NCBI GenBank assembly: GCA_963781885.1
Contig: CAWAHW010000005.1
Span: forward strand, 160,001-224,000
DNA length: 64,000 nucleotides
Direction of reading: 5' to 3'
DNA from: an uncultured Spirochaetota bacterium
GTDB taxonomy: Bacteria > Spirochaetota > Spirochaetia > SZUA-6 > Fen-1364
In this document: in pieces, positions 1 through 55,337 of the stretch
Position numbering within the stretch: position 1 is the first letter of the stretch
Layout of the letters: the number at the start of each line of letters is the position of its first letter
Notes under the pieces: generated by a model
Databases searched by the model: none
The model's input: the letters and a program-made list of their open reading frames with translations, nothing else
Told to the model about the DNA's origin: nothing
Translations under genes and position numbers: made by a program

Positions 1-612
1 CACCTCCTCCTGCTTTCGAGCCGCGTCGATCTGGGTCTTGTTCGAGGAATCGACCTTCTTCTGTGCGGCGGCGACATCTGCCTGCCGCGCTTCCAGCACG
101 GGGGCGTACTGCGCGCGCAATGCCTCAAGTCCATCACTCTCCTGTGCTTGGAGCTTTTTGACGGCCGCAGCTACGCTCGGCGCGGAAACGTCCTGAGCGT
201 TCAGAACGGCGATCTGGCCCGCAATGTCGCTGGAGAGGGCCTCGCTCTTTGTCGCCAACTCTTGCTGCGCGTCCGCGAGCGACCTTTTCGCCTTGTCCAG
301 GTCGTTTTCGTTGTTTGCGGCGGAGTTCAATAGGTCCTTCAGATTAATGTCTTGAAAATCGGTGATGTCGACAGAGACCCTGCGGCTTTGGCTCTGAACG
401 AGAAACGTGAGAAGTACCGTCACCCCCGCGGCCACGATGACGAAGCATAGTATGAAAAAAGCCGTCCGAAAGCTGCGATTGGCTTTTGTCCGGGCAAACT
501 CCTCTTCCAGCTCGTACAGCTTTGGCTTTTCCGCGCGTATGCGGTTGGCCTCTTGGAGGAAAACCTCTTTGGCGCTCTCTGAGATATCTCTTACTTGCTT
601 TTCATCGTCCAT
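1..612 (-). CDS. Membrane-anchored coiled-coil hypothetical protein (partial, runs off the window start)
   Basis: Hand translation from ATG 612 (or 624) gives MDDEKQVRDISESAKEVFLQE..., one TM segment (AFFILCFVIVAAGVTVLLTFLV), then A/Q/E/K-rich helices with no stop to base 1. Overlaps the cyclase stop. Absent from the ORF track, probably because it has no stop codon in the window. Confidence 0.75.
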   Translation of the reverse strand, partial: MDDEKQVRDISESAKEVFLQEANRIRAEKPKLYELEEEFARTKANRSFRTAFFILCFVIVAAGVTVLLTFLVQSQSRRVSVDITDFQDINLKDLLNSAANNENDLDKAKRSLADAQQELATKSEALSSDIAGQIAVLNAQDVSAPSVAAAVKKLQAQESDGLEALRAQYAPVLEARQADVAAAQKKVDSSNKTQIDAARKQEEV

Positions 613-2294
613 GTTCCGTTCCATTCCTTCGGGCTCCTTCCGCTTTTCGTGCGTTCTCTGAACACGGATGCCATGCTCAGGTTGCAGCGGATGAACCGCT
701 TGTAGGCTTCCGTCCAGTCGCCATCCACATAGAAGCGCAGGCCCCTTGAAAAAAAGTCGAGCGCTTTCTCCAACGCGGGGGTCGCGATATCCTCGGGGAT
801 CGCCCAATAGATCCACTTCCCCTCTGTTTTGCCCTTTACCTGGACACGGTCAATCTCGATGAACCGAATGCCGTGAGAGGAAAAATGCGCCTCGACATCG
901 TCCTTCACGAACCCGGAGCAGATGACGGGAACATTGCAGAGCCGGGTGAGCCCCTCCAGCCGGGAAGCCGCGTTGACGTTGTCTCCGATGACGGTATTGG
1001 TCATCCGCTCCTGCGAGCCGATATTCCCGTAGAACACGTCGCCGCCGTCAATGCCAACGCCGACCTTGAGGAGAACGGCGTTGTAGATTCGCTCTTCCTC
1101 ACTTGTGAGAGATCCCCGCTGCCGAAGGATCGTGTCTCGCCGCTCCTCCATCCGCACGCGAAGCTCCGCCGCGTTGTCCTGAATGAGGTAGGCCGAGGTG
1201 ATGGCCTGCAACGATTTTTTTGCTCGGGACTCGGGGAAAGTGCCGTAGACGGCGAGGACGGCGTCGCCGATCAGCGACCCGATGATCCCGTCGTTGCCGA
1301 CCACGGCGCTGATGGCCTGTTCGTAGTGGATGTTCAGTAGCTTGATAATGTCCGTGCCAAGGGTCTCCGTCATTGCGGTGAAACTCCTGATGTCGGAAAA
1401 GAGGATGGTAAGCTCCATCCGGGCGCCCTCCAGCCGTATCTGCTTCTCGCGGTACGCCTGGACGGCGATGTCCTTGCTCACGAACTTGCGGAAGATGGTG
1501 ACGAGATTGTTGACGGAGCTGGAGAGGGCGTTCAACGCGACGCCGAGAAACGTGATCTCGTCATTTGGCGCGTGCGCAAGATCGATTATCTCCATTTGCG
1601 AATCGTTGCGCATCTTCATGATGGCGTTGGTGATCAGACCAACGTATCGCAGGATGTACCGGATCAGTATAATTCCGATGGCGATGATAACCAGGGAGAT
1701 GAGGATGATGATGAGGGAGATCTTCAGGAAGATCTGTCGGGAGCTCTGGTAAAGCTGGCCCAACTCCTCCGCGCGCAGAATGAACATATCCCATTTCTCG
1801 TTGTATTTGTACACGCCGAAATAGGCGGAACCGGAAAACCCGAAAGAAAGAAACCCCTCCGCGGCGGAGCTTCTGTTCGCATCGAGCACCGCAAGGGCAT
1901 GAGCGTCGGGAAAACTCTTCAGCCGAGGAATCCGCAAGGCCTGGAACACGAGGTTTCCATCGGGCGCGATGCCGATCGTGATCGCCTTGGATGCCTTCAG
2001 ATCCCGCAGTGCATACTGTTCGATCGCGTCCGTTGATTTCGCAAGATCGTGCGTAAACTGGTAAATGTCAAACTGCGTCGATGCGAACGTATACGTCTCT
2101 TTGAGGTCCTTGACCAACAAGTCCTCGGTGAGCTTGATGAGCTCCGAGCGGTTGAACATGAGGTTGATGTAGTTGGTCATGAGATTGGAAACGAGGATGA
2201 AGATGCTGAAGATAAGAACGATCTTCGTCACAAGGGGCACGACCCTCGTCGACCCAATCTTCTTTCCCAGAAATCCTTCTAGCGGGCTTTCCAT
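591..2294 (-). CDS. Membrane-bound class III adenylate/guanylate cyclase (2 TM, extracytoplasmic sensor, HAMP-like linker)
   Basis: FSDIRSFT, IGDAVLA, GVGID-G-VFYGNIGS, VIGDNVNAASRLE and VKGK motifs; C-terminal TPR-like tail ending WNGTWTMKSK. Confidence 0.9.
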   Translation of the reverse strand: MESPLEGFLGKKIGSTRVVPLVTKIVLIFSIFILVSNLMTNYINLMFNRSELIKLTEDLLVKDLKETYTFASTQFDIYQFTHDLAKSTDAIEQYALRDLKASKAITIGIAPDGNLVFQALRIPRLKSFPDAHALAVLDANRSSAAEGFLSFGFSGSAYFGVYKYNEKWDMFILRAEELGQLYQSSRQIFLKISLIIILISLVIIAIGIILIRYILRYVGLITNAIMKMRNDSQMEIIDLAHAPNDEITFLGVALNALSSSVNNLVTIFRKFVSKDIAVQAYREKQIRLEGARMELTILFSDIRSFTAMTETLGTDIIKLLNIHYEQAISAVVGNDGIIGSLIGDAVLAVYGTFPESRAKKSLQAITSAYLIQDNAAELRVRMEERRDTILRQRGSLTSEEERIYNAVLLKVGVGIDGGDVFYGNIGSQERMTNTVIGDNVNAASRLEGLTRLCNVPVICSGFVKDDVEAHFSSHGIRFIEIDRVQVKGKTEGKWIYWAIPEDIATPALEKALDFFSRGLRFYVDGDWTEAYKRFIRCNLSMASVFRERTKSGRSPKEWNGTWTMKSK

Positions 2295-2432
2295 TCTGCC
2301 ATCCTTGCGAATTCAAAGAATATGAAACACACCCACGGCAGTCAAGAAAAGGCCAGGGCCCTATAAGGAAGAGACGCGAGAACCTTCTTGCCGGACAGCA
2401 CGCGCGGTCATTTGCGACAGGTCGCGTGCAGC

Positions 2433-3312
2433 TCACGATGCAAAGTGATCGTCCAGGGCTTGGTCATGGGCTTCGGTCAGAGCCTGCCGGACCAGGACCG
2501 GGACAAGCGCGGTCCTGTATTCCTTGGAAGCGCGCAGTGGATTGGAGCGCACGTGACATTCGGCCTGCACGAGCGTGGCGGCGTGCTCGATCGCATTGTC
2601 GTCGAGCGCGCGCCCGATCAAGAATCTCTCGGCATCCCGCGCACGGAAGGGCAGTGCGGCCACCGGGCCCAGCGCCAGCGTCACGGCACCGATCGTCGCA
2701 TCGGGGTCCAGCCGGAGCGTCGCCGCGCAGTTTAGAATCGGCAGGGTGAGCGACGGTCGCCTGCCCACGCGCCGCCACGCGCTGCCGGAACCCGACTGCG
2801 GCACGGCGAATCGAAGATGGGACACCATCTGTCGCGTCGGGTCGAGCACGGAGGTCTTCGCGCCCCTGTACAGCGATTCGACGGCGACCCATTCGGGCTC
2901 CGCCCGCATCGACCACGCGGGCCTCGGCCTCCAGCGCCACCGCGGCGACACCACCGTCGGCCGCCGGCATCGCCTGCGCGATGTTGCCCGCCCACGTGGC
3001 CATCGCCTGAATCGGCGCAGCGCCCACGCAGGCGGCCGCTTGCGCAAGGCATCGTGCGCGCACGAGGACAAGGGCGGAATCGCGCAGCATCGCGAAAGTG
3101 ACCGCGGCGCCGATCCGTATCCACTCTCCGTCGACATCGATTCGATCAAGGCCGTCGATGCGCGTGATGTCCACGAGTGTCTGCGCGTCGACCCTCCCGT
3201 CGCGCAGCGCCTGCATCAAGTCGGTGCCGCCCGCGATGATGCGCGCCCGGCCGCCATGCCGGGTCAGGATGTCGACGGCCTGCTTAACGGTGTCGGCAAA
3301 GAGATAATTCAT
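2433..3312 (-). CDS. Xanthine dehydrogenase/CoxM-family FAD-binding subunit (frameshift near 2900)
   Basis: MNYLFADTVKQAV..IIAGGTDLM, RIGAAVTF, ATWAGNI, PAADG in one frame; continues EWVAVESLYRG..LRASKEYR in the 2433..3149 frame. Confidence 0.85.
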
Positions 3313-6068
3313 CCCTCTGCCTTTTTGCGGCGAATCGCTTCGAGCACGCGCTCCCCCGTCGCCGGCAAACGGCGGACCCGGGCGCCGATGGCGCGTGAGA
3401 TGGCGTTGACCATGGCCGGAGCAGTCGGCAGCATCGCGGCTTCGCCGAGGCCCTTGGCGCCAAGCGGGCCGTAGCGGCTTGGCGTCTCCACCAGGTGCAC
3501 GCGGATTTTCGGCGCGGAGCCCGCGGTCGGGATCATGTAGGTACTGAAGCCGGAGCTGAGACCGGGGAGCAGCTCCTCCATCAGCACGCTTCCCATGCCC
3601 ATCACGACGCTGCCCTCGATCTGCCCCTCGGTATCGCGCCGATTGATGACGCGCCCGACGTCGTGCGCCGCGCTGACCGACAGGACGCGCGTCACCCCGG
3701 TCTCCCTGTCGACCTCGACCTGGGCGACCTGGACGCCTGTCAGGAACATTGGAAGATACGCGTCGACGCGCACGATGTCCGGAAAAAGGGCTCGGAGGTC
3801 CATGCAGCCCTCGACGCGGCGGGACACGTGATCGTTCTCCATCTTCCGTGCCACCGCGGTGAGCGAGACCGCGCCGTGTTCGCAGAGGATACTTTCGTCG
3901 TTCACCGACATACCGTCGGGCGACTGGCCGAGCATTTTTGCACCGATGGAGAGTATGGTGGCGCGCAGTTTCTTCGCGGCGTCCGCGACCGCGCCGCCGA
4001 CCCAGTAGGTGCTGCGCGACGCGCCGGTGACGTCGCCGTCGAGCGTGCTCGCCGTGTCGGCGTTGACGAGGCGCAGCGCTGCCCGCGATACGCCCAGCCG
4101 CTCTGACGCAAGCTGGGTAAATACCGTCTCGATCCCCTGCCCGTAGTCCGCGCTCGACGCGTAGATTGTGAATCGCCCGTCCAAGCCGAGCTCGACCTCT
4201 GCACGGCTCAGGGGGCGCCCGAACTTGCCGAAACGATACCACATTCCCGCCACGCCGACGCCGCGGCGGAAAGCAGGCGGCGCATGGGCGTTGAAAAGCT
4301 CCACGCTCTGTTTCGCCTCCCGGTAATCCGGTTCAATGGCTTCGAGCACCTTGCGGAAGTCGATTGTCTCAGCGGCGCGGTAGCCGAGGCCGGTGACATC
4401 GTCTTGCCCGAGGGCGTTGCGCAGGCGAAGATCCAGCGGGTCCATTCCGAGCCGCTCGCTCAGCTCGTCGAGCGTGCATTCCATCGCAAAGGCGGCCTGG
4501 GGTGTTCCGAACCCTCGGAACTGCCCGGCCTTGGGCCCGTTGCTGTAGATCGCGCGTGCGTGGGCCCGCACCGCCTGCCAGCGGTAGGGACCCACGCTCG
4601 TGATCAACGGCGTAATTGGGCAGGTAGCGTCCGGCCGAATCGTAGGCGCCCTTGTTGATGCGGGCCTCGAACTCCATCCCCACAAGGCTTCCGTCCTGCT
4701 TCGATCCTATGACACAGTGGCACGAGTAGGGATGGCGCTTGGGAGCCGCGTTCATGACCTCCCGGCGCGTATACGCGAGCTGCACCGGCGCGTGGACGTG
4801 GTACGCGGCGAGCGCCGCGGCGGCCAGCGGCCAGATGTCCTGCTTGCCGCCAAAGCTGCCCCCGATGGGCGGCGTCACGACGCGAACGCGCTCCAGCGGC
4901 AGACCAAGGATTTTCGCCAGGTGCGCGCGGTCCCAATGCGGCTCGTGGTTTGCCCCGATTGCCGTGATGCAGCCGGACTCATCGACATAGGCAACGACGG
5001 CCTCCCTTTCGAGCGCCATGTGCGCTTGAAAGCTTGTCGCGTAGTCGGCTTCGATCGTGACTTCGGCTTCCTGCCGCGCGCGCTCGCTGTCGCCCGTCTG
5101 GATCGAGTCCTCCGCCAGAAGGTTGCCCCCCCGGTGGATGGGCAGTGCATCCGGCTCGAGCGCGCGATCGATCCCGATCGTATGAGGCAGCACGGAGTAT
5201 TCGACGCGCACGGCTCTTTCGCCGTTCAGAGCCGCCTCTCGGGACGCACCGATCACGATCGCCACCGGATCGCCCAGCATGCGCACGGTGTCGCCGACGG
5301 AGGCAAGCAGATGCTCGTCGAGCGAGTAGTCGCTCAGGCCATTCTCCCCCGGTACGTCAGAGGCAGTGAGAACCCGTACGACGCCCGGTACCGCGAGAGC
5401 GGGTGAGATGTCGATGCTCACGACGCGCGCGTGAAAATGCGGGCTGCGAACCACGCGCGCATAGTGAAGGTCAGGCATCGAAATGTCTTCCGCGAAAAGC
5501 GCGGCGCCGTTCACGCGATCCCAGCCGCCATGGCGTTCGGCGCTGCCGCCGATGGCGGGCGAATCGCCAGCGCGTCCGCCCGGCACTCGATTCGCCGCGC
5601 ATCCACGCGGCCGCCAATTCCACCGCTTCGACGATCTTGATGTATCCAGTGCAACGACAGAGATTGCCGTCAAGTGCGGCGACGATTTCATTCGCGCGTG
5701 GGATCGGGCTTGCGGTCCAGGAGCGCCTTGGCGGAAAGCAGGGTACCCGGAGTGCAATAGCCGCACTGGACGGCGCCGGTTTCCAGGAATGCCTTCTGAA
5801 GCGGATGTGGATGGTCAGGCGTGCCGAGCCCTTCGATCGTCGTGACCGAGCGTCCCGCGATCTTCCCGACGGGCAGCAGGCACGAGCGTACCGCCTCCCC
5901 ATCGACGATCACGGTGCACGCGCCGCACTCGCCTTCCCTGTCGCATCCTTGTTTCGTGCCGGTCAGTCCGAGCTCTTCCCGCAGGACACGGAGGAGCGGG
6001 GTGGCCGGATCCGCGTTCACGCTCACCGCCCGGGCGTTCAGCACGAAGCCGATGCCACCGGATGGCAT
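3309..6068 (-). CDS. Xanthine-oxidase-family molybdopterin enzyme with fused N-terminal 2x[2Fe-2S] domain (frameshifts near 5695, 5570, 4605)
   Basis: TKQGCDREGECGACTV, QCGYCTPG and NLCRCTGY Fe-S motifs, then IGGSFGGKQ, FRGFGTPQ, GQG, ASRST and GAKGLGE Moco motifs across successive ORFs. Confidence 0.85.
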
Positions 6069-7499
6069 CTATTTCCCGCCGTTCTTCAGGATGTAGTCGA
6101 TCTCGGCGCTCACGGTGGGAGCGAGCGGCACGGGTTTGTGCCCGTCCATGAGGGCAATCGTCTTGTCGCGCAGGCGATCGCTCAGCCGTTTGGACCCGTC
6201 GGCGGCCCAGTCGGCGAAGCGGCGGCGATCGAAGATCTGCGGCTGCCAGAGCTCCTTGTAGTGGCTCAAGGCGTGGTCCGTGGTCAGGAAATCCCCGCCC
6301 GGCCCGACCTGCTGGATGACCTCGAGCGCCAGGGACTCGGCGTCGACTGAAACGCCGCCCATGAAGCGGCGCATCATCGAGATATTCTCCGCGCACAGCA
6401 CCATCATCTCCGGCGACGACATCATGCCGGCCTCCAGGTAGCCGATGTCGTGCGCCAGGTTCGTGCCGGCGAGCAGCGCGATCAGGACGGAGAACGCGGC
6501 ATCGGTCGCCGCCTGCTCGTCCAACGCGCAGCTGTCCGAGTGACCTGCATAGCCCCAGGTGGGCAGTCCGTAGTGGCGGCCCATTTCCATCACGCCCACG
6601 CGGGCAAGCTGGAACTCCGGCGCGCCGTACACGGAGATCATTGTCCGCATATCCATGTGATGCAGGCCCGACCCGAAAACGAACGGGGCCCCTGCGTGCT
6701 TGAGCTGGTGAATCACGAGGCCTGAGAGCACCTCCGCGTTGCCAAGGGCGAGCCCTCCCGCAATTGTCGCCGGCGCGGTTGCACCCATCATCGGGGCGGG
6801 GGAGTGAACGACGGGGAGCTGCAGCTCCGCCATGTAAAGCAGCTTGCCCACCGCCGTTTCCGAGTGGCGGAGCGGCGTGGAAGGCTCCGAATAGAGGACA
6901 AAGGTGGGATTGAGCCGGAGCTGCTCGATGCCCCCTGCCGCCGCGCTCGCCATGGCCACAATTGCCTCGGCGTCCGCCCTGTCGTTGCAGACGACGACGT
7001 GTGGCTTGGTCGTGTGCGTCAGCATCAGAGCGTATTGCCGGCGATAAGCGTTCACTGCGCCCATTTCCGAAGGAATGCCCATGGACATGCAGAAATCGAG
7101 CTCCGGGATGGCGTCGACCAGGCGCACGCAGTCGATCACGTCCGCGGCGGTGAATGGCCGCCGCTCGCCCGTGCGGGGGTCGAGATAGTTGGGACAGTCC
7201 GAACCCGTGCCGAAATGCACGCGTCTGCCTTCAAGCGGCGCCACGACCTCGGCGCTTCCTCGCCGGCACAGGGCGACGCGCGACGGCGCCTGCGCGAGCG
7301 CCCACTCGACGAGACCCGGGGGGAGCCGAACCAGATTGCCTTCTGAGATCAACGCGTCTGTTCCCTTCAGGAGCGCGAGCGCCTCCTCATGCAGGACGCG
7401 CACACCCGTGCGCCGCAGGATCTCGAGGGACGCGTTGTGAATCATCTCGCAGTGTTCATGGCTCAACATTGCAAGTTGCGGCAGAGCGGTGCTGTCCAT
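6069..7499 (-). CDS. Trimethylamine methyltransferase (MttB) superfamily protein, non-pyrrolysine type
   Basis: IHNASLEILRRTGV, GATAPATIAGGLALGNAEVLSG, HYGLP, DEQA, GYLEAGMMSSPE, VGPGGDFL. No in-frame TAG; His lies at the approximate Pyl position (GYAGHSDS). SD AGGAG before ATG 7499. Confidence 0.9.
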   Translation of the reverse strand: MDSTALPQLAMLSHEHCEMIHNASLEILRRTGVRVLHEEALALLKGTDALISEGNLVRLPPGLVEWALAQAPSRVALCRRGSAEVVAPLEGRRVHFGTGSDCPNYLDPRTGERRPFTAADVIDCVRLVDAIPELDFCMSMGIPSEMGAVNAYRRQYALMLTHTTKPHVVVCNDRADAEAIVAMASAAAGGIEQLRLNPTFVLYSEPSTPLRHSETAVGKLLYMAELQLPVVHSPAPMMGATAPATIAGGLALGNAEVLSGLVIHQLKHAGAPFVFGSGLHHMDMRTMISVYGAPEFQLARVGVMEMGRHYGLPTWGYAGHSDSCALDEQAATDAAFSVLIALLAGTNLAHDIGYLEAGMMSSPEMMVLCAENISMMRRFMGGVSVDAESLALEVIQQVGPGGDFLTTDHALSHYKELWQPQIFDRRRFADWAADGSKRLSDRLRDKTIALMDGHKPVPLAPTVSAEIDYILKNGGK

Positions 7500-7548
7500 G
7501 TGGATTCTCCTTGAATCTGGCTCGAAGATGGGCGGCGTACTCACCGAA

Positions 7549-7577
7549 AGCCTATCGCACGCGGTATGGCAAGTCAA
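7549..7577 (-). promoter_or_regulatory. Sigma70-type promoter for the mttB-Mo enzyme operon
   Basis: TTGACT-17nt-TAGGCT on the minus strand. Confidence 0.55.
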
Positions 7578-7636
7578 TGCCGGCCACAATATTCCGTGGC
7601 ATTTGCAGCCGCAGCGGGGCGGGCCGACATCGATCT

Positions 7637-7664
7637 TTGACATTTCGCTCGCCCATGCTATTCT
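7637..7664 (+). promoter_or_regulatory. Sigma70-type promoter for the ABC transporter operon
   Basis: TTGACA-16nt-TATTCT with extended TG. Confidence 0.6.
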
Positions 7665-7711
7665 CCCCGGCGCGAGTCGTTGAACACATTCAAGCGAGGA
7701 GCACTGACGGC

Positions 7712-8741
7712 ATGCCGGGGATTGCATTCCAGGCGATCACAAAACGATTCAACAACACCGTCAAACCCGCGGTGGATGACGTCACCTTCGCCGTACCGGA
7801 AGGCAGCACCTGCATGCTGGTGGGGAGGTCCGGCGCGGGCAAGACAACCCTTCTCAGGATGGTCAACCGCCTCATCGAGCCAACGTCAGGCAGGATCCTC
7901 GTTTCCGGCAGGAATGTGCTGGAGGAGAATCCGATCGAGCTGCGGACGGCACATCGGATACGTGATCCAGCAGGTGGGGCTCTTTCCCCACATGAATGTC
8001 GCGGAGAATATCCGCATCACCGCGGAGGTGGCAGGCGGGTGGTCGAGGGGACGCCTCGACGAGCGCGTGGACGAGCTGCTCGACCTGGTCGGTTTGCCGC
8101 CCGCCGAGTATCGCAGGAGGTTTCCCCGGGAGCTCTCCGGCGGGCAGCAGCAGCGTGTCGGGCTGGCGCGCGCCCTGACGACCGATCCGGCGATCCTTCT
8201 GATGGATGAGCCATTCGGAGCGCTGGACGCCATCACGCGCGCCCAGATGCAGGACGAGCTTCTGCGCATCCAGCGCGACGTGCGAAAGACGATCCTGTTT
8301 GTCACGCACGACATGGAAGAGGCGCTGAAGCTGGGTGACCTGATCGCCGTCATGCACCATGGGAAACTAATGCAGCTGGGTGCGCCGGTTGACCTCCTGA
8401 CGAGCCCTGCCGACGAAATCGTGGCGCGGCTGGTCGGGTCCGACGACATGCTGCGGGAGCTCCGCTACCTGACGGCGTCGTCCGCCGTGGATGCCGCCTT
8501 CCCGGGAAGCGCCGCTCTCGGCCAACGCCTTCCGAGCTGCCCTCCACATGCCAGCCTGCTCGACGCCATGCTGAAACTTTTTGAGACGCGCGCCCCGGCC
8601 CTTTTGATCGATGCCGTCGATGGCCTGCCTGCCGGTCATGTCACGCTGGGGAGCATCATCACCATACTCCAGAAGGGACGCTCGCGGGGGAACGAACCCG
8701 AATCAGCAACCCTCCCCGGTCGTTCCTCCGTCGGACCGTGA
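7712..8741 (+). CDS. Osmoprotectant (OpuCA/ProV-like) ABC ATPase (frameshift near 7945)
   Basis: GRSGAGKTTLLRMVNRLIEPTSG, IGYVIQQVGLFPHM, LSGGQQQRVGLARAL, LLMDEPFGALD; degenerate CBS-like tail. Confidence 0.88.
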
Positions 8742-8753
8742 GGAAGGCGCGCA

Positions 8754-9410
8754 ATGCACTACCTGTTCAGCCCATTCAATTACCGTCTTTCCGATCCGGC
8801 GAGCATACCGAATCTCACGCTCCAGCACCTGAGCATCGTCGGTATCGCCATGTTCTTCTCCATCATCATTGCGATTCCGATCGGCGTCCTTGTGTCGCGC
8901 TATCGGCGTGTTTATCTTCCGGTCATCACCGTGGCGGGGATGCTGTACAGCATCCCCGGCATTGCATTCGTCGCCGTGCTCATTGCCGTCACGGGGCTCA
9001 CGTTGAAGACGATCCTTGTGCCTCTCATCGCCTACAACCAGCTCGCATTGATTCGAAACACCGTTGCGAGCATCAACGGGATCGACCCGTCCCTGATCCA
9101 GGTCGGTCACGCTATCGGCATGAACCGCCGCCAGTTGATCGGGCGCGTGATCTTCCCCCTGGCCCTCCCGGTCATCGTGGCGGGCATCCGGATCGCCACC
9201 GTGACGACAATTGGAATCGCGTCCCTTGCGGGGTTCATCGGTCAGGGCGGCCTGGGGTCGCTCATCTTCATGAACATCACCGTGCGGGACTATGACGCGA
9301 TACTTGGCGGCGCCCTTCTGCTGGCAGCCCTCGCCGTCATCGCGGATCTCATCCTGCTCTCCCTGCAGGCGGCGCTCAATCGCGGGCGCGGCGCCCTGTC
9401 CGTCTCGTAG
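8754..9410 (+). CDS. Osmoprotectant ABC permease
   Basis: OpuCB/ProW pattern: IRNT..GIDP..AIGM, LALPVIVAGIRIA, GQGGLG. Confidence 0.9.
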   Translation: MHYLFSPFNYRLSDPASIPNLTLQHLSIVGIAMFFSIIIAIPIGVLVSRYRRVYLPVITVAGMLYSIPGIAFVAVLIAVTGLTLKTILVPLIAYNQLALIRNTVASINGIDPSLIQVGHAIGMNRRQLIGRVIFPLALPVIVAGIRIATVTTIGIASLAGFIGQGGLGSLIFMNITVRDYDAILGGALLLAALAVIADLILLSLQAALNRGRGALSVS

Positions 9411-9422
9411 GGGCCGCGTGGC

Positions 9423-10070
9423 ATGGATGCCTTGCTGAGATTCTATCTCAACCCCCGCAATGACCTTTCCGGGCAGACAGTCGCCTTTTTCGGGCTGTGC
9501 TTCGCGCCCATCGCAATCTCCATCGTGATCGGCGTCCTGATCGGCATCCTGGTCTATCGGAACGCCTTGCTCTCCTTCATCTCCGTCAATCTGAGCAACC
9601 TGATCCGCGCCGTGCCCGTGCTCGCCGCGCTGTTCATATTCGTGCCCATCTTCAAGGTGGGATTTCTTCCCGCCGCGATCGCGCTCACATTGCTCGGCAT
9701 CCCGCCGGTTCTTCTCAATACCTATGTCGGGCTTCGCGGTATCGACCCCGCGTCCATCGAAGCGGCGCGCGGCATGGGGATGACGAATCGACAGATCCTG
9801 ATCCGCGTGCAGGCCCCACTCGTGCTCCCGGTGATCGCGGCAGGGGTGCGCACCTGCGCGGTGCAGGTCGTGGCGACCGCCCCCTTGGGAGGTTTGATCG
9901 GCGCCGGCGGCTATGGCGAATATATCGTCGATGGCGTGAACCGGCTGGATACAGTGGAAATCCTTGCCGGATCGATCCTGGTTGCTGCGCTGGCGATGCT
10001 CATCGAGATCGTCATGGGCGTCGCGGAGCGGCGCTTGACTCCCCCGGGGATGCGGGCGGTGAAAGTGTGA
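9423..10070 (+). CDS. Osmoprotectant ABC permease
   Basis: EAA motif IEAARGMGMT, PVIAAGVR, GAGGYG. Confidence 0.9.
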   Translation: MDALLRFYLNPRNDLSGQTVAFFGLCFAPIAISIVIGVLIGILVYRNALLSFISVNLSNLIRAVPVLAALFIFVPIFKVGFLPAAIALTLLGIPPVLLNTYVGLRGIDPASIEAARGMGMTNRQILIRVQAPLVLPVIAAGVRTCAVQVVATAPLGGLIGAGGYGEYIVDGVNRLDTVEILAGSILVAALAMLIEIVMGVAERRLTPPGMRAVKV

Positions 10071-10176
10071 TCCGGATCCAAGAGGATTTGATATACTTTC
10101 GTTGAAGCCTGCCCGTCGGGGCAAGCGCTATCCCGGATGGCGCCGTCCTTGAGACGGCGATTTCAAAGGAGGAACC

Positions 10177-11097
10177 ATGGTGTCGAAGGTGAGTGTGTCG
10201 TTGCGAAGGACGGCGGCGGTGCTTGTCATCCTGGCAAGCCTGGTGGCCGGCTCCGCCTTCGCGAGCCCGAAGGGAACCATAACCGTCGGCGGCAAGCTCG
10301 ACGTCGAGGCGCAATTGCTGACCGAGATGTACACGCAGTTGCTCCAGAACGGGGGCTACACTGTCAATGAGAAACTGGCGTTGGGAAACAGCATCATCGT
10401 CCACAAGGCCATCACGAGCGGCGTGATCGATCTCTACCCCGAGTTCACCGCGACCGGCCTGAACACCCTTGGGATCAAGTCATCGTACGATCCGCAAAAG
10501 GACTACCAGGCGGTCAAGAGCGGCTACGAGAAGAAGTTCCAGGTCACGTGGCTCGACATGGCTCCGCTGAACGACGGGTACGGGATCTGCACCACGACGG
10601 CGCTTTCCCAATCGCTCGGGATCATGACCATCTCCCAGCTCGTGCCGCAGGTCGCGCGGATCGTGCTCGCGTCGCCGAGTGACGGCATCGACTTCATCGA
10701 TGGTCTGAAATCTGCCTACGGCATCGATACAAGCAGCTTCAAGAGCCTGCAGAAGGTCGACTATTCAATCGGGTTCGCGTCTGTCGGCAGCGGGTCCGCC
10801 CAGATGTGCGTCGGGTACACCACCGATGGCTCGATCGCCAGCCAGGGCTACCTCTTCCTGACGGACGACAAGACCGGCTTCCCGCAGTTTCATCCCGCGC
10901 CCATCGTGCGCATGAGCGTGCTCACGAAGTATCCGGACATCGCGAAGATCCTGAACCCCCTCGCTCCCAAGCTGACGACGGACGTGAGCATCCAGCTGCA
11001 GGATCAGGTGGGCAAGCTGAAAACGAGCGGCATGTCGGTCACTGAGGCCGTCAAGCAGGTGGCGAAACAGTTCCTGCAGAGTGCCGGGTTGCTCTAA
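10177..11097 (+). CDS. Glycine betaine/choline-type ABC substrate-binding protein (OpuAC/OsmF family)
   Basis: Signal peptide, ITVGGKLDVEAQLL, IDLYPEFTATG, YTTDG, LTDDKTGFPQF; SD AAGGAGG. Confidence 0.9.
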   Translation: MVSKVSVSLRRTAAVLVILASLVAGSAFASPKGTITVGGKLDVEAQLLTEMYTQLLQNGGYTVNEKLALGNSIIVHKAITSGVIDLYPEFTATGLNTLGIKSSYDPQKDYQAVKSGYEKKFQVTWLDMAPLNDGYGICTTTALSQSLGIMTISQLVPQVARIVLASPSDGIDFIDGLKSAYGIDTSSFKSLQKVDYSIGFASVGSGSAQMCVGYTTDGSIASQGYLFLTDDKTGFPQFHPAPIVRMSVLTKYPDIAKILNPLAPKLTTDVSIQLQDQVGKLKTSGMSVTEAVKQVAKQFLQSAGLL

Positions 11098-11189
11098 AAG
11101 GGGACGGAGCCCGATCAACGCAGATGCCGACGAGCTGCGTTTTGGGCCCGCGCTCAGGTCTGTGAAGCGATAGAAGACATTTGTCGGTG

Positions 11190-11224
11190 CTGGAGCGACA
11201 TCGTTCTCCCGTCGCTCCAGTCTT
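11190..11224 (+). terminator. Strong hairpin after the ABC operon (possible terminator)
   Basis: Perfect 10-bp inverted repeat CTGGAGCGAC/GTCGCTCCAG followed by TCTT; U-tract is weak. Confidence 0.4.
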
Positions 11225-11453
11225 GCCGTCGGCGCCTACGCGCGGTCTGACCGCATCTCGCAGCGCGGTTCGCGACGCTGATGCCGACGATGAACCGCCC
11301 GTCCATGGACGCGCAAGGCGTGGCCGTCGATCGTGATGACGACCTTCGGTCAGATTCAGGCATTCTCCCTTTCAGGGGGCCGCTCGAAGTGACGCGAGGA
11401 GGGGCGTCGCCAGCTCTGTTGACAACATTCTGAAAAAGCCGTAAGGTCATTTA

Positions 11454-11576
11454 CAAGACTTGGCAAGGGAGGGAAGCGTATCTCTTGGCCGAGTAAGGGA
11501 ATGGCGGTCCGGTGCCAAGGCGTGACAACATCACGTAGCATCTCCGGACTCAAGTTCCGTTGCTCCTGCTTTTTTT
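11454..11576 (+). ncRNA. Candidate structured ncRNA (family unassigned)
   Basis: Upstream TTGACA-17-TAAGGT (11419-11447), two stem-loop domains, ends in T7; no credible ORF. Confidence 0.4.
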
Positions 11577-11631
11577 CCTTCGGGTGCCTTTGCGCGCCCG
11601 TCGCGGCCGCATACATTCCTGCGGCGACCTT

Positions 11632-11705
11632 CGGGCTGTAGCGCAGTTGGTAGCGCGTTCGGTTCGGGACCGAAAGGCCGGCGGTTTCAAACCCGCCCAG
11701 CCCGA
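11632..11705 (+). tRNA. tRNA-Pro (anticodon CGG)
   Basis: Acceptor CGGGCTG/CAGCCCG-A; D-arm GCGCAGTTGGTAGCGC; anticodon arm TTCGG-TTCGGGA-CCGAA; T-arm GGCGG-TTTCAAAC-CCGCC (one extra T). CCA is not encoded. Confidence 0.92.
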
Positions 11706-11949
11706 CAATTCACTATCTTATGGAGGGGCTCACCAGGGGCCCCGGTTGCATCGGTGGTATGATTTCACATTGCTTTTCACGGTCTATCGTACTGTGGTCC
11801 ATGGCGCCAAGGCCTGGGTCATCCGTTGCCTGACGGTGAAAAGATCAAACGCATCTTCGTTCACCCCGAAGCAGGCAAGCCTTTCGTCTCCCGGGGGACG
11901 CGGAGCGGCTCATCGAGGAGCTCCGCGCACAGTCGACGCGCGGATTCGG

Positions 11950-12555
11950 CACGAAGGTGGTGGATCTCGCGAAGTACCTCTTCCCTCTGATGGTCCGTGG
12001 GCGCAGCCTCAGGCGCGAAGGCGCGATGGCCGTTCGCTTGCCCCTCGTACGATCGCTGAGCACGAGCTGAACGCGCGCCCTACATATCATCCCGGGGATC
12101 GGCGAAGAGGCAATCCGCGATATCGACACGCAGGCGATCGATGCCTTCCTGTACTCGCTGGACGTTTCCGATCGCACGAGCTGTAATGTCGCCAGCACTC
12201 TCCGCGCGATCCTCAAGGAAGCCGTGTACCGCCGCATCATCACCGCGGTCCCGCCATCGAGCTCCCCGAGAAAAAAAGCCGCAAGCCGGCCGTGCTCACC
12301 CTGGATGAGCTCCACGCGCTTTCCCCGACGGGCCGTAGAGCGCTAATGAAGTTATGGGCAGGTGAAAAGACCCACCCGGAGATGCCCGGGGCCAGCCTTG
12401 CGCTCGCTGCGTGCCGAGCCGTCATGTTTTTCAGCGGCCTGCGTCCGCAGGAGGCCCGAGCGGTGCACCTCGACCAGCTCATCAAGCGACTGTCGGTATT
12501 GCTAGTGACCCGGAGCATGGACGGGGAGGGTGCGACACTTCACGAACTTGAATAG
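11950..12555 (+). pseudogene. Degenerate tyrosine recombinase (phage integrase) fragment
   Basis: Core-binding-like HIIPGIGEEAIRDIDTQAIDAFLYSL..LRAILKEAV and box I FSGLRPQEARAV in broken frames; no HxxR or catalytic Tyr; directly downstream of the tRNA. Confidence 0.7.
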
Positions 12556-12662
12556 GGCAATCGGGTAGGGTACGCCGCGGCCTTCCAGCCGGCACGGGGG
12601 TCGTGGACGGGCTACTAGGGTGACCCACCAGACTTCTGCAAGCTCAGTAGGCCGCGGGAACG

Positions 12663-12929
12663 TCAATAGAGCTCGGAGTGGGACCCAATACGCTCAAAAG
12701 TAATCTTTCCATTCGCGATACGATAAATCAGTGGAGTATCCGATTGAGGATGGCAACTCCGGTGGCCTTCCCAAGGACCGTGCAACGCATGATCATCAAA
12801 GGTCGGTGGTAGCGCACGTTCATTCACAAGTTCGTTCATGGCCCATTTGACAGGAGCGATGTTCTTTCCCGAGGCCTTCAGCTTCTTCCAGTCCTTTTTA
12901 AACTGGTGAGCACGGCCAGGGGTCAGCAT
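12663..12929 (-). CDS. yafQ: YafQ-family (RelE superfamily) mRNA interferase toxin
   Basis: FKKDWKKL, DHALHGPWEGHRSCH, LIYR, RIGSHSELY; TGATG coupling to the upstream gene. Confidence 0.85.
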   Translation of the reverse strand: MLTPGRAHQFKKDWKKLKASGKNIAPVKWAMNELVNERALPPTFDDHALHGPWEGHRSCHPQSDTPLIYRIANGKITFERIGSHSELY

Positions 12930-13141
12930 CAAGAATCGAGTTCGTTGAAAAGATCTTCGACGGATGCGAACTCAACGATATTCACGCCAGCTTCAGTCTC
13001 AGCCATTACTTGCTGGGTCATAGCATTCGGAACGAGAATCCCATTCGGACTGGCTGCGGTTTCCACGGTCATCAAAGAATCATAAGTCGCGGCCTGAGCC
13101 GTTGGTGATCTGGCTGGCGATTGTGTCATCACGAGCGTCAT
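12929..13141 (-). CDS. Putative antitoxin with DinJ/RelB-like C-terminus
   Basis: VPNAMTQQVMAETEAG..FASVEDLFNELDS acidic tail; SD GGAGG; coupled to the toxin. Confidence 0.7.
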   Translation of the reverse strand: MTLVMTQSPARSPTAQAATYDSLMTVETAASPNGILVPNAMTQQVMAETEAGVNIVEFASVEDLFNELDS

Positions 13142-13156
13142 CTATTCCTCCCGGCC

Positions 13157-13543
13157 CTATCTTGAGCCAATCAAATTGACCGGCACATTCCTGGAAATCA
13201 GCACCTGGCCATTAACAAGGAACTGCAGTACATATATGCCGGCTCTAACGATGATCGGAGGCACCATGAGAACAATCTCTACGCCACTTGTGGGATCCTG
13301 AATCTGCATTTCTCCCCCAGCCGAAAAAGCAACCTCCTGAGTATCCTCTCGCGCCAAGTTGAAAGTAAAAGTATTATGGCCCTGCAAGTTCTCAACTGCA
13401 GCGAAGAGATACCACGGCGGAATCTGGGCAGGGAATTGAGGAAGGTTGAACTTGCTAAACACCCCCACCAGGACCTTTTTTCCATTGTCTTCGGTGACGA
13501 TGACATCCGCCATAAGCAGGGCGGTCAATAGCGGTTCAGGCAT
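13157..13543 (-). CDS. Hypothetical beta-rich protein (DUF6941-like)
   Basis: LLMADVIVTEDNGKKVLVGVF..GIYVLQFLVNGQ pattern; 128 aa, low-GC codon usage. Confidence 0.65.
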   Translation of the reverse strand: MPEPLLTALLMADVIVTEDNGKKVLVGVFSKFNLPQFPAQIPPWYLFAAVENLQGHNTFTFNLAREDTQEVAFSAGGEMQIQDPTSGVEIVLMVPPIIVRAGIYVLQFLVNGQVLISRNVPVNLIGSR

Positions 13544-13716
13544 ACTTTCCCCATATAGACTCTCCTAAAAGTCTATCGTTACAATCTTCAGCGGTCAAGG
13601 ATAGAGACTGAAAATTCCATTTGAAGCTGCCAGATTTCTAATCTCGGGCCTCCCATGCGTCATTTTGACACAATCTCATCATTTCCGACCCTGGTATGGT
13701 CTCCAAGAAAGGCGGC

Positions 13717-13881
13717 CTATTCTTCTATTTCGTCCGTCTCGAACAGAAAGAAGGCTGGCCGTTTTGCTTCGACTTGCCTTAGACGTTGACTCAATTGCTC
13801 AATTTGAGCTTGTTTTCTTTTTCGTTCTACAAGCAACGTTCCAGGCGCCCTCTCCAGTTTCACCAGCAATTGGCGGAACAT
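13717..13881 (-). CDS. Possible 54-aa hypothetical protein
   Basis: Hand translation MFRQLLVKLERAPGTLLVERKRKQAQIEQLSQRLRQVEAKRPAFFLFETDEIEE*; no family recognised. Confidence 0.25.
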   Translation of the reverse strand: MFRQLLVKLERAPGTLLVERKRKQAQIEQLSQRLRQVEAKRPAFFLFETDEIEE

Positions 13882-13956
13882 CGTGAGGTATCCTTGTCCT
13901 GCAACTGATCCACGCCTCCTTGATCGTCTCCGCAGAGAAAGGCATAGGGCGACCTC

Positions 13957-14245
13957 CTATTTCTGGAGAAGGCCGTCCTCGATGCGGACCGGCGGAGTCG
14001 CTGAGATCAGGTGCGATAAATCGATGGAATTGGCATCTTGCACGAGGAAGTTGTACGATGATGCGTCGATGGTGACCGTTCCCGTCGATCCTACGCCGAG
14101 CTCGCCGGTGTCATTCGCAATTGCAAAAGAATAGCTCCCACTCGACGGGCCGGTGAAGGTCATGTCCGCGTTGAACGTCCACGCCGGCGCCGCTCCATTG
14201 CCACGTTCCTATGAAGGGATTCGCGTTGTAGCCAGTGACGATCGG
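13957..14245 (-). pseudogene. Fragment of an exported or lipoprotein-like gene
   Basis: NPFIGTWQWSG followed, after a frame change, by WTFNADMTFTGPSSGSYSF..; no N-terminus or signal peptide found. Confidence 0.35.
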
Positions 14246-14611
14246 CCGCAGCTCGCGAGTATCTCCTTGATAAGCCTTATTTCAACTCTCACAGTGATAC
14301 TCCGACGGAAAAAGAATGATGTCGCTGGACGATCCTTCCGATCGACGACAATGGAGTGGCGCCAAAGTCACTGCTTCCCGTTCGGACATTCCGCCTCGCC
14401 CATGGGCAGGATAGGTCAATCAGATTGAACCTGTGAAGAAAAAAGGCTCCTGAAGGCGATAGGGCGTGTCCTCCTCGTCATTCAAGCGAAAGAAATGACG
14501 ACCGCTCTCTCGCGTCTCATCGCGTTGATCGGCAAGGGGGCCTGTAGCCCGGCCTGCATGCATAGAACGGTGCGGTCCCCGGCGAATGCCCGCGCCCCGC
14601 GTGCGCCCTCT

Positions 14612-54040: not shown

Positions 54041-55337
54041 ATGGACCCGATCTTTCGTGCACCGCGCGGGCTGGGCGGCAGCCTGCGTCCGCCGCCGGAC
54101 AAATCCATCACGCATCGGGCCCTGATGCTCGCCGGCGTGTCCTCGGGTCCGTGCCGCATCACCCATCCTCTGGCAACGGGCGACTGCATCTCCACCCGCG
54201 CGCTGCCTGGAAGCGCTGGGTGCCGCCTTCCGCGAATCGCGGGAGGGCCTGGAAGCGCAGGGCGTTGGTCTGCGGGGGCTGCGGGAGCCGCCGCGCGTTC
54301 TGGACGCCGAGAACTCGGGCACGACGACGCGGCTCCTCAGCGGGCTCCTTGCCGGGCAGCCGCATTTTGCAGTTCTCACCGGGGATGCCTCCCTCCTCAC
54401 GCGTCCCATGGGCAGGGTCGTGGAGCCGCTGCGAAAGATGGGAGCCTCCATCCAGGGCAGGGAAGGGGGCCGGTACGCACCGTTGTGCTTCCTTCCCGGC
54501 ACCGGCGCCCTTGCGCCCCTAGAGTGGAAGCTTCCCGTTCCCAGCGCGCAGGTGAAAAGCTGCCTGCTTTTCGCGGGGCTTCGCGCCACCGGGCCGTCCA
54601 CGATCGGCGGAATGACGGCCTCCCGTGACCACACCGAGCGGATGCTCCGTCACCTGGGTGTTCGCCTGGAGGAGCATGAAGGGACGCTCACGGTCCATCC
54701 GGTGAAAAGCCTGCCGGGTTTCGACGTCGTGGTGCCGGGCGACATCTCATCGGCGGCATTCTTCATCACCGCCGCCCTCATTGGAGGCCGCGAGCTTTCG
54801 ATTGCAGGCTGCGGGATCAACCCGACGCGCGCGGGCTTCCTGGAGGTCGTGCGCCGCATGGGCGCGCTCGTCACGACGCGGCAGGACGGCGAATCCCTCG
54901 GTGAGCCGGTGGGCACGATCGCGGTTTCTCCGGGCGATCTGCGCGGGACGACCGTTACGCCGGCGGAGGTTCCCGACCTGATCGATGAGATACCGCTGCT
55001 TGCCGTTCTGGGGCTTTTTGCGCGCGGCGTGACCGTCGTACACGGCGCGGAAGAGCTTCGCTTCAAGGAGAGCGACCGCCTGCAGATGATCGCCGCGATG
55101 GCGGAAGGCCTTGGCGGCAGGGTGGAGCTGCACGCGGACGGGTTCTCCGTGGAAGGGCCGCAGGCGCTCCACGGCGGAGCAGTCGATCCCCGGGGCGACC
55201 ACCGGATCGCGATGGCAGCGGCCGTTGCGGGCGCCGGGGTGCGCGATGGCGTGAAGGTCACGGGTTTCGACTGTGCGCGGGTCTCCTATCCCAACTTTGT
55301 CCGCGATTTTCTCTCACTCGGGGGGGAGGTCGCGTGA
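54041..55337 (+). CDS. aroA: EPSP synthase (frameshift near 54200)
   Basis: PPDKSITHRA, ENSGTTTRLL, RPMGRV, SAQVKS, RDHTERML, PGDISSAAF, IDEIP, KESDR, DHRIAM. Confidence 0.93.

Follow-up and report, generated by a model that had tools for sequence, protein, structure and literature searches.

Gene organization of the cassette

We analysed a 64,000-nt stretch of DNA from an uncultured Spirochaetota bacterium (assembly GCA_963781885.1, contig CAWAHW010000005.1, C5:160001-224000; hereafter the window), in which positions 2433–11097 hold a seven-gene cassette combining an MttB-family methyltransferase, a molybdenum (Mo) hydroxylase of the xanthine-oxidase family and a betaine-type ATP-binding cassette (ABC) importer. 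On the minus strand, mttB is followed by a gene for a fused Fe-S/Mo hydroxylase and by the gene for its flavin adenine dinucleotide (FAD)-binding subunit. The TAG stop codon of mttB (6071–6069) directly abuts the ATG of the Fe-S/Mo gene (6068–6066) without any spacer, and the stop codon of the latter overlaps the start of the FAD-subunit gene as ATGA at 3309–3312. The importer operon (7712–11097, plus strand), which consists of genes for an ATPase, two permeases and an OpuAC-type binding protein, is divergent from mttB and separated from it by 212 nt. Both junctions and the divergent OpuC/ProU-like operon, the latter verified with Pfam, had been described correctly in a sequence-only reading of this DNA, and so had the lack of a corrinoid protein, a second methyltransferase and a RamA activator: a Pfam scan and genome-wide profile matches revealed no gene for a corrinoid protein, second methyltransferase or RamA/RACo activator in the window, all matches of the genome to PF02310, PF02607, PF00809 and PF14574 lying outside it. 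The layout itself required two corrections. Five single-base insertions, overlooked in that reading, interrupt three of the seven genes as assembled, and mttB, whose open reading frame (ORF) spans 6069–7727, most likely starts at 7499 rather than 7727, as placed by alignment to orthologues.

The region between mttB and the ABC operon contains one σ70-like site at 7637–7664 (plus strand), recognized by consensus match only. No Rfam family other than tRNA was found in window positions 1–14500, hence no cobalamin riboswitch. All features are collected in Table 1, where C1, C2 and C3 are other contigs of the same genome.

Table 1 Cassette genes, frameshift sites and unlinked corrinoid-related genes
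Feature	Location	Strand	Evidence or remark
mttB, non-pyrrolysine MttB-superfamily methyltransferase, 476 aa, intact	6069..7499	-	PF06253 305.6 bits
Fused [2Fe-2S]/molybdopterin hydroxylase, xanthine-oxidase family, four frame pieces	3309..6068	-	Pfam, tblastn
FAD-binding subunit, broken once near 2893	2433..3312	-	FAD_binding_5 and CO_deh_flav_C in two frames
Intergenic region, mttB/ABC operon	7500..7711	.	divergent
ABC ATPase, ProV/OpuCA-like, broken once near 7944	7712..8741	+	ABC_tran split at profile position 53
ABC permease 1, intact	8754..9410	+	BPD_transp_1; 80-83% identity to orthologues
ABC permease 2, intact	9423..10070	+	BPD_transp_1; 83-87% identity to orthologues
Secreted substrate-binding protein, OpuBC/OpuCC/EgtUC type	10177..11097	+	OpuAC (PF04069) 130.9 bits
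Frameshift site 1, extra base, Fe-S domain	5690	-	orthologue alignment; short-read contig
Frameshift site 2, extra base, Fe-S/Mo linker	5568	-	orthologue alignment; position approximate (stretch poorly conserved)
Frameshift site 3, extra base, MoCoBD_1 domain	4607	-	Pfam split, orthologue alignment
Frameshift site 4, extra base, FAD subunit	2893	-	orthologue alignment
Extra base in ABC ATPase	7944	+	ABC_tran split, orthologue alignment
Corrinoid protein, 237 aa	C2:105641-106351		best NCBIfam MtgC 203 bits (cut-off 370); cognate corrinoid protein domain 179 (cut-off 215)
231-aa ORF, B12-binding_2 and B12-binding			beside MtaA/CmuA-like fragment
CarH-like regulator	C2:469884-470849		B12-binding domains
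387-aa protein			B12-binding_2 and B12-binding
Methyl-tetrahydrofolate:corrinoid methyltransferase, 272 aa	C1:267218-268033		next to glyA; 329 against cut-off 259, passed
RACo-type activator, complete	C3:105424-107341		

Conservation and mobility of the cassette

A search with MttB only, using one genome per species, returned 26 loci, 21 of which contained xanthine-oxidase-family genes. Eighteen encoded the same fused Fe-S/Mo type at 43–78% identity (some cut by contig ends), three held only a three-subunit Mo type of ~30% identity, and five (L036, L043, L044, L046 and L047) had no gene of this family. The MttB–Mo linkage, conservation of which the sequence-only reading had proposed to examine, is thus kept in other genomes of both Spirochaetota and Chloroflexota. 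Four loci from Rectinemataceae, Treponemataceae or unclassified bacteria (L023–L026) carried all seven genes in the same order at 67–87% identity, and the tblastn matches of MttB and the Mo protein were 4 nt apart there, i.e., the two genes abut. The flanks differ in all five copies, with adenylate cyclase and tRNA-Pro genes in the window, chemotaxis genes in L023, genes for a methyl-accepting chemotaxis protein, an HD-GYP protein and a URO-D-like protein in L024, genes for a U32 peptidase, an ABC-F protein and tyrosyl-tRNA synthetase in L025, and a sugar ABC system, LacI and a CGGC-domain gene in L026. Because all seven genes recur while their flanks differ, the unit apparently moves as a cassette.

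A quick, midpoint-rooted maximum-likelihood tree built from 75 MttB rows placed the window protein in a 20-row group (Shimodaira–Hasegawa-like approximate likelihood ratio support 93), and a Mo gene lay within 2.1 kb of mttB in 18 of these rows; the exceptions were L034, where the FAD gene stands at the contig start, and L036. The five spirochaete-type rows formed a clade (support 100) among Chloroflexota rows, its placement being weakly supported (80–81), and transfer of the cassette between Spirochaetota and Chloroflexota appears likely. The reciprocal search from the Mo protein added only four loci, including a stripped-down Chloroflexota form of the MttB/Mo pairing (L083). Among 121 genomes of the order of the Chloroflexota locus L037 (labelled Anaerolineales), close Mo-protein orthologues of at least 55% identity occurred in only three, and the other matches at E values of 1e-100 or better were 30–39% identical paralogues.

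No tRNA-derived direct repeat was found at the cassette ends, and a foreign origin was not supported by base composition (62–67% G+C in the cassette, 61–64% in the contigs). The tRNA-Pro(CGG) gene lies at window positions 11632–11706 (plus strand), 535 nt past the binding-protein gene. The ORFs at 11359–12552 had no Pfam match, and a low-G+C stretch (50%) at 13001–14000 contains a DUF6941 gene (13160–13564, minus strand).

A distinct non-pyrrolysine MttB

The PF06253 match of the window protein (cut-off 25 bits) extended over profile positions 26–492 of 500, which places it in the MttB superfamily. It was the only MttB-family gene found in the genome (one match, no internal stop), and orthologues in the four spirochaete-type loci were 76–83% identical. 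A pyrrolysine-type trimethylamine methyltransferase was ruled out: the protein scored 374.7 bits against the TIGR02369 cut-off of 525, the gene has no in-frame TAG, and the pyrrolysine position (X in 7xcl) aligned by eye with His320. Solved relatives were the pyrrolysine MttB (186 bits), MtgB (176 bits) and a Sinorhizobium protein (144 bits).

MtgB of the Desulfitobacterium hafniense MtgB/MtgC/MtgA system (PDB 2qne, 9yce) has the same superfamily fold, a similar length and no pyrrolysine, and the window protein aligns with it over nearly the whole length but only at the modest score given above. The residues Y97, R312, H348 and F356, which hold glycine betaine in MtgB according to PMC13080624, correspond to S100, W315, H350 and G358 in an alignment to 9yce read by eye (chain index = residue number minus 2), so that only the histidine, one of the four, is kept (Y97→S, R312→W, F356→G). 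By this alignment, the methyltransferase lacks three of the four MtgB-type glycine-betaine residues, which argues on its side against a specificity for glycine betaine alone, an outcome that the sequence-only reading had named as contrary to its proposal. The four aligned residues and H320, together with D101, Y105, Y317, Y354 and E356, were invariant in all 20 rows of the clade and variable among 38 other paralogues. According to PMC13080624, the characterised non-pyrrolysine enzymes, which besides MtgB comprise MtpB, MtcB, MtyB and MthB, all act on aliphatic quaternary amines and have adjacent corrinoid genes. We found no report of Mo hydroxylase coupling for MtgB or the other characterised non-pyrrolysine systems, unlike the arrangement in the window.

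A nicotinate-dehydrogenase-like Mo hydroxylase

Profile and structure-relative comparisons of the Mo enzyme were made with the intact orthologue from L024. Orthologues of the Fe-S/Mo protein are single ORFs of 918–934 aa, and those of the FAD subunit have 292 aa. The Fe-S/Mo gene encodes Fer2, Fer2_2, Ald_Xan_dh_C (a/b hammerhead), MoCoBD_1 and MoCoBD_2 domains, which together with the FAD_binding_5/CO_deh_flav_C subunit and the motif glutamate identify a member of the xanthine-oxidase family. This glutamate, in KGLGEAAM (GxKGxGE motif), aligns with that of GAKGVGEP in NdhM and is presumably the catalytic residue.

The enzyme passed none of the NCBIfam equivalog models. Its best match was the selenium-dependent xanthine dehydrogenase model TIGR03311 (578 bits, cut-off 830), followed by the Mo-dependent aldehyde oxidoreductase model NF045668 (570 bits, cut-off 1100). 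Xanthine dehydrogenase proper was rejected, with scores far below the cut-offs of four models (NF043082, 464 versus 780; NF007426, 432 versus 916; TIGR03196, 428 versus 784; TIGR02965, 281 versus 850). End to end, the best solved relatives were the aldehyde oxidoreductases of Desulfovibrio (428 and 396 bits), which align best in this comparison because they share the fusion. Taken module by module, the nicotinate dehydrogenase NdhFSLM of Eubacterium barkeri (PDB 3hrd) was the best-scoring solved relative in four of four cases: 162.7 bits for the Fe-S part (next 141), 261 bits for the L part (next 163; aldehyde oxidoreductases 147–155; xanthine dehydrogenase ~122), 175 bits for the M part (next 125; aldehyde oxidoreductases 90–110) and 75.4 bits for the FAD subunit (next 73.1). 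Because nicotinate dehydrogenase ranked first in every module and the xanthine dehydrogenase models failed, the Mo enzyme, as judged from its sequence, is not a purine xanthine dehydrogenase and resembles a heterocycle hydroxylase more closely than an aldehyde oxidoreductase. A grouping with true xanthine dehydrogenases, which would have told against the earlier proposal, was accordingly not seen.

The window enzyme and NdhFSLM have in common two [2Fe-2S] clusters, a Mo-pterin cofactor, FAD and the catalytic glutamate motif. They differ in that NdhFSLM is built of four separate subunits, whereas the window enzyme fuses S, L and M into one 918-aa chain, and no nicotinate fermentation genes lie near the window cassette. 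The aldehyde oxidoreductases (MOP) of D. gigas and D. desulfuricans (1sij, 1dgj) have the same fused single-chain Fe-S/Mo architecture but score below nicotinate dehydrogenase in both Mo domains; the Desulfovibrio enzymes are not known to have a FAD subunit, whereas the window system has a separate one.

A betaine-type importer lacking EgtU specificity residues

The best solved relatives of the binding protein were the ergothioneine-binding EgtUC domains (117 bits), followed by Lmo1422, OpuBC-derived sensors and OsmF. We mapped by eye, from the alignment, the EgtU residues named in PMC9732360. The aromatic cage is kept, with F293, Y341, Y419 and Y443 of EgtU aligning to F90, Y135, Y214 and F238, and this four-sided cage in an OpuAC fold (PF04069) is characteristic of quaternary-amine binding proteins. 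The carboxylate contacts K242 and T296 of EgtUC are also kept. In contrast, the ergothioneine determinants are replaced (G244→D42, E375→S166, R379→G170), with F kept at the Y-to-F switch position. Since the cage and the carboxylate contacts persist and G244, E375 and R379 do not, the protein should bind a quaternary-nitrogen carboxylate without the specificity of EgtU. The Streptococcus pneumoniae EgtUV importer (EgtUC; 7txl, 9egi) also differs in having its binding domain fused to the permease, whereas the window protein is a separate lipoprotein-like chain. The intact orthologue of the ATPase scored 277 bits against the proV model TIGR01186 (cut-off 326.6).

Corrinoid partners encoded elsewhere in the genome

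Four proteins of the genome combine B12-binding_2 and B12-binding domains, all of them encoded outside the window (Table 1). A corrinoid protein, a methyl-tetrahydrofolate:corrinoid methyltransferase and an activator, the components that an MttB-type system uses, are all present and unlinked; the genome search for corrinoid partners that the sequence-only reading had suggested therefore turned up an MtgC-like protein, the methyltransferase and RACo. These are counterparts of the MtgB system, but are spread over three contigs. Searches of 13 other genomes with the cassette found B12-binding_2 matches in every one, mostly within open frames of 213–246 aa. In marine bacteria, MtgB is known to have a cobalamin module that is not linked to it (PMC12478193).

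The CarH-like protein, which joins a helix-turn-helix to B12-binding domains, is encoded among carotenoid genes (phytoene synthase, lycopene cyclase, desaturases), which suggests light-regulated pigment synthesis. Separately, C1:210060-214545 holds genes for a small B12-binding protein (163-aa ORF) and, close by, a homologue of methylaspartate ammonia-lyase sharing 40% identity with the one in L037, which suggests a glutamate mutase/methylaspartate pathway in this genome.

Frameshifts in the cassette: assembly error or decay

DNA alignment to three orthologous loci placed the five insertions near 5690, 5568, 4607, 2893 and 7944, and Pfam domains are split at exactly these points over overlapping ORFs in different frames (5688–6068, 5471–5902, 4369–5766 and 3309–4685 for the Fe-S/Mo gene). 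In tblastn with intact orthologues, the Fe-S/Mo gene appeared as four collinear pieces and the FAD and ATPase genes as two each; four of the insertions leave the hydroxylase genes without an uninterrupted frame in the assembly. We compared 208 long ORFs from 400 kb (20 loci) of a same-genus genome (G002) with the whole genome and counted 98 distinct genes (124 kb) having a counterpart at 50% identity or more. Fourteen of the 98 changed frame within the match (10 of the +1 type and 4 of the −1 type), i.e., one break per 8.9 kb. Frame-breaking indels in this assembly are exemplified by C2:564299-567665, C4:273843-277608, C2:423512-424436 and C2:463809-464568. The proportion of split genes, 14%, which includes proteins of 1176 and 1282 aa, is far above what a living genome tolerates.

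The five frameshifts are probably assembly errors, because unrelated genes are split alike genome-wide and a short-read contig is in frame at the one site that could be assessed. This 197-nt contig (run X1, window 5588–5785) is one base shorter at 5693 and has another letter at 5695, which opens the frame at site 1; it has three other-letter differences in all and may come from a close strain. The short-read runs X1–X3 covered this site only, of the five. The opposite explanation, that the insertions are real and very recent, so that the genes for the Mo hydroxylase and the ATPase have decayed to pseudogenes, leaving only the methyltransferase, the permeases and the binding protein, appears unlikely to us. 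It draws on the density of breaks, since five in 8.7 kb surpass the background (Poisson P ~0.003) and are all confined to three genes with four others (3.7 kb) intact, and on the state of other genes, rpoB and rpoC being intact and selD and a yqeB-like gene each falling into two pieces. These points weigh against assembly error. The last two genes are markers of selenium-dependent Mo hydroxylases; they are not informative on the cassette enzyme, because the genome has two other xanthine-oxidase-family enzymes. Against decay, the number of unrelated genes split is too large for real pseudogenes, and the +1 type, found in 10 of the 14 genomic breaks and in all five cassette breaks, resembles a technical signature. 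Beyond the frameshifts, the broken genes have no stop codons or deletions, and their identity to L024 matches that of intact L026 genes at equal divergence (Fe-S/Mo 75.5 versus 74.0%; FAD subunit 67.2 versus 61.8%; ATPase 78.1 versus 78.6%), a comparison that shows no relaxed selection and has low power for recent decay. With assembly as the most likely source of the breaks, the organism itself probably has a working cassette.

The EPSP synthase (5-enolpyruvylshikimate-3-phosphate synthase) match at window 54126–55334 (plus strand) begins at profile position 50 of 417 within an open frame, and its N-terminus may be lost to a further frameshift. Assembly indels can mimic pseudogenes, and both the gene calls made on this genome and its pseudogene tallies should be treated with caution.

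A sister MttB system with a different molybdoenzyme

Of 20 genomes from the same genus, 12 had a top MttB match only 62–64% identical to the window protein (L011–L022). These sequences formed a sister clade (support 100) that was identical to the clade of the window protein at all 19 columns examined, among them those corresponding to the substrate residues of MtgB and to pyrrolysine. No xanthine-oxidase-family Mo subunit was found beside any of the twelve genes, the sole query match nearby being a 64-residue Fe-S stretch ~9 kb off in L011. Instead, the sister mttB adjoins a gene for a 725-aa cytoplasmic enzyme of the dimethyl sulfoxide (DMSO)-reductase family in 12 of 12 loci, accompanied in nine by an Opp-type binding protein. 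The best solved relatives of this enzyme were thiosulfate/polysulfide reductase and acetylene hydratase, and it had no match in the window genome (92.55% complete). The sister clusters thus contain the same triad as the window, with molybdoenzyme and importer from unrelated families. Across both systems, an MttB with one predicted type of pocket is repeatedly combined with an importer and a molybdoenzyme, and these two partners are exchangeable between unrelated families.

In Chloroflexota, seven MttB/Mo clusters (L027, L030, L033, L035, L037, L040 and L041) also contain a methylaspartate ammonia-lyase gene (392.6 against the equivalog cut-off of 286 in L037); six of the seven loci hold a PRK07475-type Asp/Glu-racemase-like gene, and the vicinity contains two to four additional MttB paralogues. 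Genes for Fe- or Zn-type alcohol dehydrogenases were present in several Chloroflexota loci. No corrinoid gene was found within 10 kb of the Chloroflexota MttB/Mo clusters in the loci annotated. The genomes of L037, L040 and L041 have three small corrinoid-protein genes each on one contig (G048:C2, G049:C5, G050:C5), which, if the cluster is on the same contig, may lie ~25–40 kb from it. In Syntrophomonadaceae, L042:1-21420 and L048 encode a related MttB (56–59% identical) with three more MttB paralogues, next to a three-subunit Mo hydroxylase of another type, an Opp importer, a PrpD-like protein, histidine ammonia-lyase, HutP and a formiminotransferase-cyclodeaminase domain gene.

A predicted pathway and its candidate substrates

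Taken together, the gene content, the coupling, the conserved linkage, the unlinked corrinoid components and the family placement of the enzymes make it fairly probable, in our judgement, that the cassette serves to import a single quaternary-nitrogen compound and to convert it in two successive steps. In the order of steps that we infer, the compound would be imported by the OpuC/EgtU-like ABC importer, and the MttB-family enzyme would move one N-methyl group to the Co(I) of a corrinoid protein, the best candidate being the MtgC-like protein on C2. The methyl group would pass to tetrahydrofolate through the methyltransferase encoded beside glyA, with the RACo-type activator repairing oxidised cobalt. 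The demethylated product, most likely an N-heteroaromatic carboxylate, would then be hydroxylated with water by the nicotinate-dehydrogenase-like enzyme, its electrons leaving via the FAD subunit to a presumed acceptor. Uptake, N-demethylation and ring hydroxylation of a single substrate, as proposed in the sequence-only reading, remains the best account of the linkage, the likeness to 3hrd and the corrinoid partners; trigonelline, which it gave as an example, stays a reasonable guess and no firmer than that. A conversion of trigonelline via nicotinate to 6-hydroxynicotinate is our leading suggestion for the substrate, offered tentatively and with a good chance of being wrong, because it unites the likeness to nicotinate dehydrogenase, the betaine importer and a published remark on peat: in PMC10805028, the trigonelline present in peat is raised as an aromatic methylamine that may be an unrecognised methylotrophic substrate.

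Several observations weigh against this interpretation. The Mo enzyme failed every equivalog model and is left with no curated assignment, and the ligand of the binding protein's best-scoring solved relative is ergothioneine rather than a pyridinium betaine. An adjacent MttB was present in only two of the four loci added by the search from the Mo protein, the other two being on short or truncated contigs. The same pocket columns occur in the sister clade with an unrelated Mo enzyme and an Opp importer, which fits trigonelline/nicotinate poorly, and no downstream nicotinate-catabolic genes were found travelling with the cassette in the window or in the flanks of L023–L026.

Part of this evidence would suit a histidine betaine (hercynine or ergothioneine) better. 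The MttB would then demethylate the trimethylammonium group and the Mo enzyme would attack the imidazole C2, a carbon comparable in type to C8 of xanthine; the sister DMSO-reductase-family enzyme, found with the same MttB pocket columns in all twelve same-genus loci, would fill the same role and resembles an ergothioneine synthase module. Histidine ammonia-lyase (as a fragment), HutP and the formiminotransferase-cyclodeaminase domain flank L042, and the true methylaspartate ammonia-lyase genes of the seven Chloroflexota loci are compatible with histidine–glutamate–mesaconate fermentation. The EgtUC likeness of the binding protein points the same way, yet the residues that determine ergothioneine specificity are lost from it, and the hut genes accompany only the clade with the different, ~30% identical three-subunit Mo enzyme. 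We know of no xanthine-oxidase-family enzyme that acts on hercynine, and the sister Mo enzyme is like the MES module (PMC9516567) in class only. On balance, a histidine betaine seems to us an unlikely substrate, somewhat behind trigonelline. Betaine aldehyde fits least of the three. In this proposal, an alternative of the sequence-only reading that our scores have weakened, the Mo enzyme would be an aldehyde oxidoreductase that makes the MttB substrate, for example glycine betaine from choline-derived betaine aldehyde. The fused architecture with its end-to-end scores, the rank of NF045668 as second-best NCBIfam model and the alcohol dehydrogenase genes of several Chloroflexota loci speak for it, but the NF045668 score is far under the cut-off, both Mo domains score nicotinate dehydrogenase higher, and the window enzyme has the FAD subunit that the Desulfovibrio enzymes are not known to have. 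Moreover, MttB keeps only one of the four MtgB glycine-betaine residues and none of the five spirochaete-type cassettes contains an alcohol dehydrogenase gene, leaving this role of the Mo enzyme decidedly improbable. Least credible of all is that MttB and the Mo hydroxylase are encoded side by side but serve no common pathway, which we regard as extremely improbable. The two families have not been linked in print as far as our literature search reached, and L036 belongs to the MttB clade and has no Mo gene in 10 kb upstream; however, the pairing is kept over Spirochaetota and Chloroflexota in different gene orders, the two genes are translationally coupled in five copies, and they move together as a cassette.

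Implications for anaerobic methylotrophy

Full-text searches of articles turned up no publication in which an MttB-family enzyme is connected to a Mo hydroxylase, trigonelline, ergothioneine, hercynine or homarine, and in the literature we found no anaerobic demethylation route for ergothioneine or hercynine. The cassette points to an undescribed oxygen-free breakdown route for a methylated nitrogen compound. More speculatively, and with appreciable doubt, one MttB clade may be obligately teamed with a molybdoenzyme and an importer, the molybdoenzyme slot being filled by a nicotinate-dehydrogenase-like enzyme here and in Chloroflexota or by a DMSO-reductase type in the rest of the genus; the two forms together would represent an undescribed but widespread anaerobic route that acts on aromatic N-methyl betaines, either trigonelline or hercynine/ergothioneine, and the cassette would be passed on horizontally from one phylum to another.

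The seven-gene size of the cassette makes the hypothesis directly testable. If it is true, corrinoid-dependent demethylation would be coupled to an oxygen-independent attack on a heteroaromatic ring, and an MttB clade consistently wired to a Mo hydroxylase would extend anaerobic methylotrophy by a new class of substrates and a new type of pathway. Either trigonelline or ergothioneine/hercynine would tie plant- or fungus-derived betaines to the flow of C1 units in anoxic soils and sediments.

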